Made by a program: the position numbers and the translations under genes. A stretch of 64,000 nt of DNA from Candidatus Saccharimonadales bacterium (GTDB lineage: Bacteria > Patescibacteriota > Saccharimonadia > Saccharimonadales > JANWIN01), in NCBI GenBank assembly GCA_038231155.1, contig JBBRLY010000013.1:196305-260304 (forward strand). The letters are read 5' to 3'. Position 1 is the stretch's first letter. The number at the start of each line of letters is the position of its first letter. The notes beneath the pieces were generated by a model. The model searched no databases. It was not told the DNA's origin and was given only the letters and a program-made list of their open reading frames with translations. This document shows positions 25,432 through 36,262 of this stretch, piece after piece.

Positions 25432-28400
25432 ATGGCCCGATTACCACAGCCAGGGGGTGACGACGGAGATTGGGGGATTATACTCAATGATTTCTTAGAT
25501 GTTGCTCATAATCCCGATGGCAGTCTTAAAAATGTTGTTAGTTTAAACACCAGCCAATCTATTAGCGGCGCGAAGACGTTTTCAGTCTCGCCGACTGTAC
25601 CAACACCTGTACTAAGTGGAGATGCTACAACTAAAGCTTACGTGGACAGCACTGCCGGAGCTGGGACGACTGGGGCAACAGGCCCTGCTGGAGCAGCTGG
25701 TGCTACTGGTGCTGGTGTAACTGGTGCTACTGGCCCTATTGGTACAGTTGGAGCAACGGGATCACAAGGCACAACTGGCGCAACCGGATCAGGAGGTAGC
25801 CAAGGAGCAACCGGAGCTACTGGACCGACCGGAAGTACTGGAACGCAAGGTTCTACAGGAGCAACCGGAGCAGGCGTAACTGGAGCTACTGGACCTGCTG
25901 GAACTGTTGGAGCAACAGGTTCACAAGGCACAACTGGCGCAACCGGATCTACCGGCACGCAAGGTACCACTGGTGCGACGGGACCGACTGGGACAACAGG
26001 TACGACAGGCGCCACCGGGACAACAGGTGTACAAGGAGCTACTGGATCAACAGGAAATCAGGGCACTACCGGAGCGACGGGTCCGACTGGGACTACTGGA
26101 ACTACAGGAGCAACCGGTAGTCAAGGTAATGCCGGTGCTACCGGAGCAGTTGGGGCCAGTGGCGCTACTGGGCCTAGAGGTTTTGCTGGTGGTGATACTT
26201 TTACTTATACCTTCGATACAGGCACAACTGATGCAGACCCGGGTTCGGGCAAACTAAGATTTGATAACGCTACTGTTTCCTCGGTCACGCATATTTATGT
26301 AGACGTATTAGATAGTAATGGGACTGATGTTACAACTTGGCTCAACAATATGGGTGGTGGTGTTGTTAAGTTATTTAATAACTCAGACCCCACCAAGTTT
26401 GCTATTTTTACTGTTGGTTCAGTTACCAGCGTCGCTGGATATGATAAGTTAAATGTAACTTATACCACAAATGCTGGGACGCTTGGCACTACGGCCGCAG
26501 ATCTAGTATTAACTTTTGCTCCGCCTGGACCGACCGGTCCGCCAGGCAACGCAAGTACTCAGGGAGCTACCGGAGCTACAGGACCGATTGGTGCTGATGG
26601 AGCAACCGGTGCTGGAACCACAGGAGCCACCGGCTCAGCCGGGGCTTCAGGTTCGGCTGGTGCAACTGGTGCAACCGGAAGCAGTGGTCTCGGTTTTGGT
26701 AACGTAGTTACTAAAACAACTAACTACACAATTGTTTCAGGAGACAATGGCACAGAAATAACATTTAATGGATCTAATTTAACGGCTAAGCTACCAGCCA
26801 CAGCCCCAGCTCAGCCCTGGATGGTAACTGTTATTAATTTAAATGCCAGTAGCTTAACCTTAGATCCTAACGGCCTCACCTTAAATGGTTCAGTAAGTAC
26901 TAGCTCAATAGCTCAAAACCAAAGCGTTTTTGTTTGGTCAGACGGTACTAACTACAATTATGGTACCGGCCCCCAAGGTGCCACCGGACCTACTGGGACA
27001 ACCGGGGGACTAGGTAATACGGGGGCTACAGGTAGTGCTGGTAGTCAAGGAGCTACTGGTTCTGTAGGAGCTACAGGTTCTAGTGGTGGACAAGGGGCTA
27101 CAGGGTCAACTGGTACAACCGGAGTAACCGGTGCGACTGGACCTGCAGGTCAGTTTGGTTTAGCGAGAACTGGTGTTAAAACAGCTAACTATAGTGCTAG
27201 TGTAGGAGACTTAGTTCCTTGTGATACTAATACAACTGGTGCCTTTACGGTAACGCTACCTGATGCCCCAGCAGATAAATCTACTATTGGCATAAAGCTT
27301 ATTATTCAAGGTGCGACTAATACTGTTACTGTAGTCACTCATGCTGATGCTGGAGCTAGTGGTGGAGCAACTGGTTCTGATGTATTTAATAAAGCTGGCG
27401 GTGCAACCAGCTTAACACTTAGTCTACTTAATCAAGGAGTTATCTTAGAATACACGGCTGCATCAGCCATTTGGACAGTGCTAGCCGATGATTTGGCTTT
27501 ATCTCAACTGGATGCACGTTTTATTGCCAGTGGAGGAGCAGCCGGCGGTGACTTAACTGGCACTTATCCAAATCCGACGGTCAGTTCGACAGCTAACTTT
27601 AAGACTCAGGTTGAAACTGTACGTCTTGATCAAATGGCAGTTCCTACAGCTTCAGTTAGTCTTAATTCTCAGAAGATAACTAACCTAGCTAATGGTACTG
27701 CTGCCAGTGATGCTGCAGCCTTTGGGCAAATACCAACTGGGTTACCGCCTACAGGAACAGCCGGTGGTGACTTAACGGGTACTTATCCGAACCCAACTAT
27801 CAAGTCTGGTGTCAGTCTAACTACTCCAAATATTAATGTCGCTACTGCAACTTCTATAAACAAAGTTGCAATTACCGCTCCAGCTACTTCATCAACTTTG
27901 ACTATAGCTGATGGTAAAACACTTACAGTTAACAACTCATTAACATTTGCCGGAACCGATGGTACTACCATGACGTTCCCAAGTACATCGGCCACAATCG
28001 CCCGTACTGATGCTGCAAATACTTTCACCGGTGTCCAGACGATGACCTCGCCAGCTCTGACAACTCCAGCTATAAATGGTATTTCAACCGGAACAGGTGT
28101 AGCTACAGCCGCAACTGCTAGTACATTATTGCTACGAGATACCAATGCCAATGCCACGGCTAATAATTTTATTGAATCATATGCAACTACTACCACAGCT
28201 GCTGGTACTACCACTCTGACCGTAGGTAGTGCTATGCAACAGTACTTTACAGGCAGCGCAACCCAAACTGTTACTTTACCGGTTGCCAGTACCATGGTTC
28301 TTGGCCAAGGCTTTGCATTTACTAACAATAGTACTGGCGCAGTTACTATTAATTCATCTGGTGACAGCGCGGTTCAAGTTATGGCAGCATCATCATCTGC

Positions 28401-34756: not shown

Positions 34757-36262
34757 ATGATTAAACAAATAGTCTTTATCGGTGACTCATTAACGGTCGG
34801 ATTTCAGCTACTCGGTGTCTCGATCGGCCAGGGCGGGAAGGGCGGCTGGGTTGAGCTGGCAGCTGAACTTTTAAATGATGCCCCGACAGTGGGACCGCTT
34901 CTCGGCACCGGCATTCGACCGGTTTCCGGTGGTTGGGTCAGTCTTACTGAATGGAGTTTTGCGGGCAGTTGGACAGCCGTTACTAACAGTAATGCCTTCG
35001 ATAAAATGCCCTATAACTCAATTAAGTATGCCAATGGTGCTACTAACATTGCCACCTTTACGGTCTCCACCCATTGGCGCCCGGCCGTTGGCTTTTGTAT
35101 CTACTATATTGACTACGCCAGCGGTGGTAATTGGCAGTACCGGATTAATGGCGGCAGCTGGACGAACATGGGCCAGACCATTCTAAATGACGATAAATTG
35201 GCCAAATTTTATGTGGCGTCGGCCGTTTCGCCTGGCCAAACCATCGATATTCGGGGGTTCGACGGGACGGCAGATTGCGGCGTATTGCCAGCCGGCATCG
35301 AATTATTCTATAGCGATCCTAGGGTGGCCACTCAGGGCTTGATTGTCCATAATCTGGCCGTTGGGGGAACTTTCATGAGTCAATTATTTCCCAGTGCTCC
35401 GGCCGATCCGTTGGCTTTTTTTGATTCGGTCAAACTTGGCACGGGTTCGCCCATCACCAATTCCCCCAATAGTGGGACGTTTATTATGCACATCAATGAC
35501 GTGGTATTTAACAACGTCGGTCAATGGGCAACTAATCATACATCGTTTTATAATCGCGTCTCGCCGCTGGGTCCGGTCGGCTTTATTAGCCCCTGGGAAA
35601 ATGGCGCCGGGCCGTCCAGTTTTGTCACCAAGGTGACCAATTACACCGTTCTCACAAGTGACAACGTTTTTGGGTTTAACTTTAATGGCACTAGCCTAAC
35701 TGCCACCTTACCAGCAACCCCCCCTGCACCAGGACTTATTTCCTGGTATGTCATCATTATCAATCTTAATGCCAGCGCTCTGACCATTAATCCGAATAGC
35801 AATACGTTAACTGGGTCGAGCACAGTGGCTCAGAATCAGGTTGTCCAAATCACCTCCAATGGCACCAAATACACTGTTAGTACCAATGGAGCCTACAATC
35901 AAGCCAACTTTCGGGCGTCAACTAAGTCATCGGCTCAATCCCTGGGTGCTCAAATTTTTGATATTTATGACGCCTGGAACGCCAATGGCTGGGGGAATGT
36001 CGTCGGCACTCAGAGCGCGGCCCTGATAGCTCAGGGCTTTACCATCCCCGATGATAGTGGCACCCATCCCACCCAAGCCGCTCACTTAGATTTAGCAGTT
36101 CGTATATATTGGTTTTTGCGTAATCAAATCCTCGGAATTAGCAATGAACCTGCAGCTTATTCAGTCGGAGCAAAACAAGTTGCATCCAGTTATACTGGCA
36201 GTAAACCAGCGGTTGCTTATACTTCTAGTTTACCAATTTCGTTATTACCGCTAGATCATTGA
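34757..36262 (+). CDS. SGNH/GDSL-type hydrolase fused to a fibre-type module
   Basis: 501 aa. The N-terminal block IVFIGDSLTVGF gives the GDS catalytic Ser. An internal segment (nt 35621-35885), VTKVTNYTVLTSDN...TATLPATPPAP...IIINLNASALTINPNSNTLTGSSTVAQNQVVQITSNGTKY, matches fibre 1 at nt 26701-26965. A late DSGTHP may be block V (DxxH). Confidence 0.72.
   Translation: MIKQIVFIGDSLTVGFQLLGVSIGQGGKGGWVELAAELLNDAPTVGPLLGTGIRPVSGGWVSLTEWSFAGSWTAVTNSNAFDKMPYNSIKYANGATNIATFTVSTHWRPAVGFCIYYIDYASGGNWQYRINGGSWTNMGQTILNDDKLAKFYVASAVSPGQTIDIRGFDGTADCGVLPAGIELFYSDPRVATQGLIVHNLAVGGTFMSQLFPSAPADPLAFFDSVKLGTGSPITNSPNSGTFIMHINDVVFNNVGQWATNHTSFYNRVSPLGPVGFISPWENGAGPSSFVTKVTNYTVLTSDNVFGFNFNGTSLTATLPATPPAPGLISWYVIIINLNASALTINPNSNTLTGSSTVAQNQVVQITSNGTKYTVSTNGAYNQANFRASTKSSAQSLGAQIFDIYDAWNANGWGNVVGTQSAALIAQGFTIPDDSGTHPTQAAHLDLAVRIYWFLRNQILGISNEPAAYSVGAKQVASSYTGSKPAVAYTSSLPISLLPLDH

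Follow-up and report, generated by a model that had tools for sequence, protein, structure and literature searches.

We analysed a 64,000-nucleotide (nt) stretch of the genome of a Candidatus Saccharimonadales bacterium, hereafter the window, which carries two genes for very long collagen-like fibre proteins, fibre 1 (25432-30804, an open reading frame [ORF] of 1790 amino acids [aa]) and fibre 2 (31380-34622, an ORF of 1080 aa). Positions are those of the window, and features are on the + strand unless they are marked (-). Both proteins begin with the same short N-terminal module. We found that this module, a gene for a small protein of 67 aa, and the twin-arginine translocation (Tat) genes tatA and tatC are coupled, both in their positions on the chromosome and in their distribution among genomes. 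The reading that we favour, with about even confidence, is that the module heads a chromosomal and vertically inherited set of genes for cellular surface fibres and enzymes that are exported or anchored through Tat. A preliminary description of this DNA, made from the sequence alone, gave the positions and sizes of the fibre ORFs exactly as they stand in the ORF table. The tatA, tatC, and 67-aa genes, which lie upstream of fibre 1, were outside the coordinates that it covered and were missed there.

These three genes lie directly upstream of fibre 1 at 23772-25300. tatA is at 23820-23996 (the listed ORF opens at 23772; translation probably starts at the ATG giving MFGKTEDL...) and has a promoter-like site before it at 23766-23794. 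Its product starts MFGKTEDLVIVLLIILLLFGAKK... and is 82 to 84% identical to the TatA ORFs that lie beside tatC in related genomes. tatC is at 24037-25011 (Pfam TatC, E=3.1e-49, 168 bits). The gene for the 67-aa Tat-system-associated small protein, which we call small67, is at 25097-25300 and was characterized with an alignment of 23 orthologues. The protein has a polar N-region ending in N-R-K-E-F-L, then a Gly/Ala-rich hydrophobic helix, and last a C-terminal GYGSSSYGG tail. Judged by its sequence, it is built like a twin-arginine signal peptide to which hardly any mature domain is attached. R17 and F20, in the motif R-[RK]-x-F-L, are invariant in the 23 orthologues, of which 18 have K or R at the second motif position and eight have RR. 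All 23 matched NCBIfam NF038009 over the full length of the model (best E=1e-19), a family whose name, "twin-arginine translocation system-associated protein," records only an association with Tat, and two matched TIGR01409 (TAT_signal_seq). A crude scan of all ORFs in the genome found no canonical [ST]RRxFLK motif and ranked small67 as the closest, a result of little weight because the scan is not discriminating. No longer proteins that fuse the 67-aa family to another domain were found in a fusion search, which is weak evidence.

An alignment of 33 N-termini from 20 genomes showed that only about the first 35 residues of the fibres are universal. In fibre 1 this module (aa 1-35) is encoded at 25432-25536. 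Its consensus is M-x-RLP-x-PGGD-x-G-x-WG-x-ILN-x-FL-x-V-x-HN-x-DG, it always begins at residue 1, and R3, L4, P5, D10, W14, G15, L22, and G30 are invariant in the 33 proteins. The preliminary description had taken the conserved N-terminus to include a K-x-YVD motif. The first 35 or so residues are truly conserved, whereas residues 36-74 (25537-25653, ISGAKTF...TKAYVD) are a generic phage-fibre motif: they gave a tblastn match at aa 35-72 to gp36 of Aeromonas phage 65 and a match to PHROG 38418, and relatives match Pfam BppL_N at the same place. The 35-residue core matched nothing in the PDB up to E=10, and that of fibre 1 matched no PHROG. When the N-terminal 75 residues of fibre 1 were compared with 50,697 phage records, 10 matched; six Streptomyces phage records alone match the module core (aa 1-36), and four Aeromonas records match aa 35-72 alone. 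In the two Streptomyces phage records that we examined, BRock and GiJojo, the module gene is in a tRNA/accessory region outside the tail module.

A protein database contained 103 proteins headed by the module, and the closest homologues bear Candidatus Saccharimonadales names. The domains fused to it include Collagen, DUF5907, Pect-lyase_RHGA_epim, Beta_helix, HylP hyaluronidase, GH172, GDSL, CBM5/12, and tailspike domains. The activities of these domains make sense only outside the cell, and none of the module-headed sequences that we read has a signal peptide. In a census of 36,145 genera, 252 carried the module, and about 165 of these were among the 480 genera of Saccharimonadia (about a third of that class). 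The module is largely confined to the Saccharimonadia. On three further contigs of the candidate phyla radiation (CPR) type, the module genes sit in all three cases among housekeeping genes (dnaA/yidC, priA/ftsZ, and ftsH). Eighteen genera of Nanobdellota, a group of DPANN archaea that are likewise episymbionts, gave weak module matches, at 20 to 39% of the best score, and there were a few census matches in Microgenomatia and Anaerolineae; all of these are candidate relatives only.

The distribution of the module follows that of Tat. We compared 40 related genomes from 34 families. The module was present in 22 of them, with up to 13 copies per approximately 1 Mb. The conserved N-terminus with variable C-terminal parts that had been noted for the two fibres belongs to a family that is expanded in these reduced genomes. 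tatC was present in 24 genomes (about 60%), with one TatC per genome. All 22 carriers of the module were among the 24 genomes with tatC, and none was among the 16 without it (Fisher p ~2e-9). The 67-aa gene was found in 23 of the 24 and, at E<=1e-3, in none of the 16, among which there was one weak match (E=0.003).

The same genes are also neighbours. The 67-aa gene is within approximately 1 kb of tatA or tatC in 16 of 23 loci, and in 12 of the 23, which come from different families, a module gene lies directly 3' of it on the same strand. We extended this comparison to the census genera, using the 23-orthologue alignment because NF038009 at its cut-off of 100 bits gave no matches, excluding the local homologues. 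A module gene was no more than 3 kb from a 67-aa gene in 33 of 108 carriers in the score band of 20 to 39% of the best, in 54 of 108 at 40 to 59%, and in 6 of 12 at 60% or more; random places in the same genomes gave fewer than three matches. Like the census of the module, this one centred on the Saccharimonadia. A second type of small protein, ending in HGFGASKFG, always precedes a second module type, QRLPFVNGDDGQWGDIL.QWLKKEHYDDGTDN, in three genomes. This GFGASKFG-type protein pairs with the QRLPFVNGDDGQWG-type module, and the identities of the partners are correlated (Mantel r=0.53, p=2e-4), which shows inheritance as a cassette and is no proof of physical contact. In one related genome (G026:C4:115918-116754), tatC is followed immediately by a match to module residues 1-34 in an open frame of just 46 aa, and the 67-aa gene was not detected; the cassette there may be decayed or rearranged.

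Among the Actinomycetota, both loci that we examined have an extra tatA paralogue upstream of the module gene. In the complete genome of Mycobacterium sp. JS623, the extra tatA is 250 nt upstream of a gene for a 1585-aa module protein with a pectate-lyase fold. At this locus (L045:7573-12758) the TatA paralogue has 59 aa, and the GC content of the region is 0.56 to 0.58, versus 0.62 in the downstream flank. The lower GC content, together with a nearby DarT gene and a gene of the ADP-ribosylglycohydrolase family, suggests that the locus may be a genomic island. The other locus is on a contig of a Pseudonocardiales metagenome-assembled genome (L047:2378-8733, GC content 0.63) and encodes, in this order, a serine recombinase, a paralogue of TatA, a protein of 67 aa whose motif is the canonical DRRGFLK, a prepilin-like protein with an N_methyl motif, and a 910-aa module protein that starts MARLPHPGSDDGTWGNILNDFL. 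The arrangement is a hint of mobility of the cassette and of a pilin-like protein that may belong to it in Actinomycetota.

The fibres themselves present an export problem, since they have no signal peptide, and their link to tatA, tatC, and the 67-aa gene speaks to it. For proteins that are folded or oligomeric the general route is Tat; Sec carries unfolded chains only. In the case of phage fibres and collagen-like trimers, both folding and oligomerisation are cytoplasmic. Signal-less partners are known to ride Tat on subunits that bear a signal (PMC4273604, PMC10924467; Rodrigue et al. 1999, cited in PMC13673990). From these three points we propose that the 35-aa module is a tag for targeting or docking, coupled to Tat, and that the 67-aa protein would provide the signal or an anchor. 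In this scheme the fibres would fold and trimerise in the cytoplasm, where the product of the adjacent glycosyltransferase family 1 (GT1) gene might O-glycosylate the Thr-rich G-X-T tracts, a step suggested by analogy with BclA only. small67 would supply the twin-arginine signal in trans, on the hitchhiker principle, or would be a Tat-inserted membrane anchor that holds the tag. TatA and TatC would then move or insert the fibre complex, and the signal-less esterase encoded downstream could travel with the fibre by means of a module that the two have in common. Outside the cell, the variable tips would attach to glycans on the surface of a host or neighbouring cell, and the SGNH-like esterase would modify these glycans. 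We infer trimer formation from the collagen tracts and the phage relatives; Tat dependence, surface display, glycosylation, and host binding are likewise what this scheme predicts. Going further, Saccharimonadia and a few Actinomycetota may have a dedicated Tat branch, in which a trans-acting signal or anchor of 60 to 70 aa recognises the 35-aa tag and exports or displays folded phage-derived trimers and glycan-degrading enzymes. This stronger version we put forward tentatively, with more doubt than conviction.

Several observations weigh against Tat-dependent cellular fibres. The Streptomyces phage records show that the module is not strictly cellular. The significance given above for the phyletic association is overstated, because the genomes are kin and not independent, and the association has exceptions: in two genomes with tatC we did not detect the module, and in one genome with the module and tatC we did not detect the 67-aa gene. 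About half of the module genes are not beside a 67-aa gene, and there is no Tat gene within 6 to 8 kb of the weaker module relatives at loci L046, L048, and L049. There is no twin-arginine motif in the fibres. In small67 itself the second Arg of the motif is often Lys and in a few orthologues is A, T, or L. The window copy scores only 61.1 bits against NF038009 (positions 3-69 of the 70 in the model, E=9e-17), below the cut-off of 100, so it is at best a distant relative of that family. A trimer of 1790-aa chains, at approximately 0.5 MDa and hundreds of nm, would be far larger than any Tat cargo known to us. Lastly, the expression of the fibres and their dependence on Tat are predictions from the sequence.

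The fibres are mosaics. Over aa 1-73 the two proteins are 78% identical, and residues 201-386 of fibre 1 are 71% identical (E=1e-70) to residues 138-329 of fibre 2, a block that takes in the end of the first collagen-like tract, an insert domain, and the beginning of the second tract. BLASTP found no significant similarity between them beyond the start of collagen tract 2. The architecture proposed in the preliminary description (a common N-terminus, collagen-like tracts, and an insert, followed by divergence) is borne out by these blocks. In fibre 1, collagen-like tract 1 is at 25672-26196 (aa 81-255; Pfam Collagen and triplet count), and the other tracts are at 26563-26694 and 26977-27165. 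Pfam Collagen scored 96.4 bits for fibre 1 and 60.6 bits for fibre 2, against a cut-off of 27.2. There are 92 G-X-Y triplets in fibre 1 and 64 in fibre 2; Thr occupies Y in 52 of the former and 37 of the latter. The collagen tracts matched the BclA structure 1wck_A (E=3e-8). Neither protein has a hydrophobic N-terminal stretch, as read from the sequence, and both N-termini are hydrophilic, in agreement with the earlier statement that they lack signal peptides. Neither C-terminus has an LPXTG motif.

Tail-fibre families of the PHROG database matched the fibres with E values as low as 5e-42. The insert domain of about 120 residues (26173-26547, fibre 1 aa 248-372, identified by its identity with aa 190-315 of fibre 2) was modelled with AlphaFold2 as an all-beta domain with a predicted local distance difference test score (pLDDT) of 89.7. 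Related sequences occur in Mesorhizobium DUF2793 proteins and in phage proteins that have a Collar domain. No fold could be assigned: Foldseek found nothing at E<=0.001, and VIA-align 2 gave a best Z of 6.2, with several phage tail proteins at about Z=5. Farther along fibre 1, a domain at 28840-29382 (aa ~1137-1317) resembles phage capsid decoration proteins (PDB 9nx3_A, E=1.8e-10; PHROG 2647, head decoration, aa 1136-1345). The nearest neighbours of the fibre 1 tip in the ESM Atlas are mostly viral (scores of 0.88 to 0.89), which is a lead only. The C-terminal tip of fibre 2 (33957-34619, aa 860-1080) belongs to a very large and unnamed family; at E<=1e-3 it matched 3011 representative proteins. 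Among the top 150 of these, the match mostly extends to the C-terminus of the protein, and the N-terminal module was found in one. The AlphaFold2 model of this tip (pLDDT 90.3) matched, by Foldseek, a capsid-associated chain of cyanophage A4 (9jwb_Z, E=1.5e-4) and, each with probability 1.0, the central fibre of mycobacteriophage Douge (8zdp_v) and the tail tip of Bxb1 (9d93_Pa). These PHROG families, the decoration-like domain, and the tip fold agree with the earlier assignment of phage receptor-binding-protein modules, and the descent of the fibre parts from phage modules is well supported. The fibres are long and probably trimeric. Fibre 1 also contains an internal duplication (27539-27798, with copy 2 at 28481-28740; 91% DNA identity over 260 nt), the two copies of which are identical at 82 of 87 residues and hold repeated short sequence units. 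This 260-nt direct repeat could permit the in-frame loss or gain of approximately 940 nt of shaft by recombination.

Phage parentage of the parts raises the question of whether the locus is itself phage, as the receptor-binding end of a prophage or tailocin whose other genes are elsewhere or decayed. The phage homologues of most fibre modules suggest this, as do the GC content of the locus (0.47 to 0.54, versus approximately 0.40 genome-wide) and the fact that an SGNH esterase beside a receptor-binding protein is common in phages, to which the ESM Atlas adds a lead. However, the raised GC content is explained by the Gly, Ala, and Thr codons of the fibres. Searches of the whole genome, which is 96.8% complete, for TerL_ATPase, Terminase_6N, HK97 capsid, portal, tape measure, Baseplate_J, and sheath found none of these seven families; control genomes gave matches. 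The earlier statement that the 64 kb contain no phage structural gene holds for the 30 window ORFs that we searched with Pfam, among which there was no phage hallmark gene, and it now extends to the whole genome. Synteny with cellular flanks is kept across genera: in a genome of another genus of the same family (G007), the order is a gene for a 238-aa membrane protein, tatA, tatC, the 67-aa gene, fibre, fibre, esterase, and GT1, followed after GT1 by genes for a 238-aa protein, Nramp, and FtsX, and the order is partly kept in three more genomes (G003, G005, and G006). Both fibre reading frames are intact, and in the Streptomyces phages the module gene is not in the tail module. The lack of hallmark genes, the synteny with housekeeping flanks, and the location of family members amid dnaA, ftsZ, and ftsH make a prophage tip, which the preliminary description had kept as its alternative, very improbable. 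The locus is chromosomal and cellular, with conserved synteny and no prophage, and the cellular fibre system that the description preferred stands in that respect.

If the fibres are cellular, their link to Tat might still be incidental. small67 would then be an ordinary component or substrate of Tat, the module genes would merely have been inserted or retained nearby, and their products would leave by lysis, in vesicles, or through another system. The missing RR motif in the fibres, the half of the module genes that are elsewhere in the genome, and the implausible size of the cargo all fit this explanation. It does not fit the restriction of the module to tatC-positive genomes among the 40 sampled, which represent many families of the order, nor the same-strand order of 67-aa gene and module gene in 12 loci of different families. 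The paralogue-specific pairing of small proteins with modules and the independent pairing of the module with an extra tatA at both Actinomycetota loci also argue against it, and we consider an incidental link quite unlikely. Somewhat less unlikely, although still improbable in our view, is that the fibres form a surface coat, either a glycosylated BclA-like "hairy nap" or a protective S-layer-like covering, and are not an adhesin, with tips that vary for immune or phage evasion and not for recognition of a host; export of such a coat could still be linked to Tat. A coat would be consistent with the BclA-like G-X-T tracts (Thr at Y in 57% of the triplets), with the highly conserved GT1 gene in the locus, and with neighbouring genes that encode other surface proteins and a sortase. 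On the other hand, the fibre tips resemble the receptor-binding tips of phages, and members of the family have domains of depolymerase, esterase, and carbohydrate-binding type, whose targets are foreign glycans. Analogous fibres, moreover, serve prey recognition in Bdellovibrio (PMC10769870).

Those Bdellovibrio bacteriovorus MAT fibres (PMC10769870) are the closest functional analogue of Tat-linked cellular fibres. They, too, are a multicopy chromosomal family; they resemble trimeric phage fibres, have a conserved N-terminus joined to swappable tips, and belong to a bacterium that lives on others. MAT fibres are displayed on the surface, as is predicted for those described here. MAT proteins have a Sec-type signal peptide, a beta-rich N-domain of approximately 130 aa, and, in many cases, an S74 protease-chaperone (PMC10769870). 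In contrast, our fibres have no signal peptide, a different N-terminal module of 35 aa, and no Peptidase_S74 match in Pfam, and they have collagen tracts and are linked to tatAC and a small Tat-signal protein. They share with BclA and Scl the triple-helix G-X-T/Y tracts, the globular C-terminal domain, and a nearby glycosyltransferase. Assembly of BclA takes place on the spore, within the mother cell, and requires no export, and Scl has a signal peptide and an LPXTG anchor. Judged by its lineage, our organism is presumably not a spore former, and its fibres, unlike BclA and Scl, have neither signal peptide nor LPXTG motif and contain many phage-fibre modules. Their likeness to the tail-tip fibres of actinophages (Bxb1 and Douge) and to PHROG families lies in the tip fold, the motif of K-x-YVD/BppL_N type, the collagen-like "minor tail" tracts, and the decoration-like domain; the difference is that there are no virion genes here and that the first 35 residues have no PHROG counterpart.

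With the Tat hitchhikers HybOC, DmsAB, and PaoABC (PMC4273604, PMC10924467), the proposed system would share the crossing of a signal-less protein, folded, together with a twin-arginine partner. The carriers of the known hitchhikers are real enzyme subunits of redox complexes, whereas the carrier proposed here is a nearly bare signal peptide of 67 aa with a GYGSSxYGG tail, and it would serve a whole family of cargo with a common N-terminal tag. We know of no case of Tat hitchhiking that uses such a mini-carrier for a tagged family. In the literature that we searched, outside subscription journals, there was no description of the fibres or of a link between the module and Tat, nor any link of NF038009 to the module family. 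In its parts, then, the locus combines known kinds, phage-derived cellular fibres and Tat co-export; that it also embodies a new targeting principle is possible, and we hold this somewhat doubtfully.

To our knowledge, how Saccharibacteria and other CPR episymbionts recognise and hold their hosts is largely unknown beyond type IV pili, and the route by which signal-less proteins reach their surface is unexplained. The locus points to a family of phage-derived fibres and depolymerase-like enzymes under one N-terminal tag and tied to tatAC. Tat has been noted in some Saccharimonadia, with its cargo unexplained (PMC6031116, PMC9166423). If the coupling described here is functional, it would help to explain why Tat has been retained in about 60% of the sampled reduced genomes of the order, and it would add to Tat both a new class of cargo and a new principle of targeting, in which the signal is given in trans to a tagged family of proteins. 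It would also supply candidate determinants of host specificity with swappable tips. A dedicated Tat branch, if true, would be the way out of the cell for a family of surface proteins that lack signals in these episymbionts, and it might account for the retention of Tat in the reduced genomes that have them. Because the cassette is present in a culturable Mycobacterium, the idea is directly testable.

Downstream of fibre 2 is the gene for the SGNH/GDSL-like esterase (34757-36262), a protein of 501 aa that has no signal peptide and into which a fibre module is inserted. As the preliminary description had claimed, the module is of the fibre type: residues 290-372 of the esterase (35624-35872) are 55% identical over 83 residues (E=2e-18) to residues 426-508 of fibre 1 (26707-26955). 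The description had also called the protein a GDS(L)-type hydrolase. The GDS (aa 9-11) and IND (aa 246-248, within H-I-N-D at aa 245-248) motifs are indeed present, but the Pfam Lipase_GDSL match, at 18.1 bits, is below the cut-off of 23.6. Block V is DDSGTHP, in which the Asp is one residue farther from the His than in D-x-x-H. In the ESM Atlas the neighbours of the esterase are SGNH clusters (score of 0.83), again a lead only. It has no detectable relation to the GDSL domain of the module-bearing relative P0056. A homologue of the esterase gene follows a fibre gene in G007 and does so twice in G005. In the latter (locus L017, C26:210-12592), two tandem fibre-esterase cassettes lie upstream of the conserved GT1 gene, so the fibre-esterase pair looks like a repeating unit of the locus. 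L017 also encodes a 580-aa protein made up of collagen repeats and an SGNH-like domain. The GT1 gene, which encodes a GT-B glycosyltransferase (36360-37526; Pfam Glycos_transf_1, 64.8 bits versus a cut-off of 26.4, E=9e-18), is the best-conserved gene of the locus; it is in the same place after the esterase gene in G007 and G005, where its product is 87.5% and 80% identical, respectively, to that of the window.

Three other genes in or beside the locus had been named in the preliminary description. Two small ORFs between the fibres, of 89 aa (30806-31075) and 50 aa (31163-31315), both unverified, had been proposed as coiled-coil parts of the system. Neither has a homologue in the genome or in any related locus that we compared, and both are absent from the syntenic locus of G007, so we dropped them as not conserved. 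Only the 50-aa ORF has a clear Shine-Dalgarno sequence (GGAGGGGG); there is none clear for the 89-aa ORF, which is probably outside the fibre system. The RCC1 gene (37558-39837 [-]) encodes a protein of 759 aa that consists almost wholly of RCC1 repeats, with 14 RCC1_2 matches (WD40_RLD, E=1e-230). It was likewise dropped from the conserved locus, since its absence from G007 indicates that it is probably a lineage-specific insertion beside the fibre genes.

The window is positions 196305 to 260304 of contig C13 in an assembly of 928,683 bp (23 contigs, 96.8% complete, GC content 0.40). The DNA sequencing runs in which the locus was found all belong to one study of sediment and soil metagenomes, which is probably the source of the assembly; no RNA run was listed. 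The window is otherwise ordinary chromosome, with genes for F-type ATP synthase subunits, GluRS, two sortases, an LPNTG protein, histidine kinases, Nramp, and an ABC/FtsX exporter. Genes for surface proteins are abundant around the fibres. At 20298-22390 (-), a sortase gene overlaps the end of the gene for a 484-aa secreted protein with a C-terminal LPNTG motif and membrane anchor, Asn-rich secreted proteins are encoded at 19315-20241 and 22504-22926, and the second sortase gene is at 49683-50903. A gene unrelated to the fibres, at 55235-57754 (-), encodes an 839-aa ATPase of the HerA/TrwB type (DUF87, type IV coupling-protein-like), which could bear on the transfer of DNA or protein in this organism.

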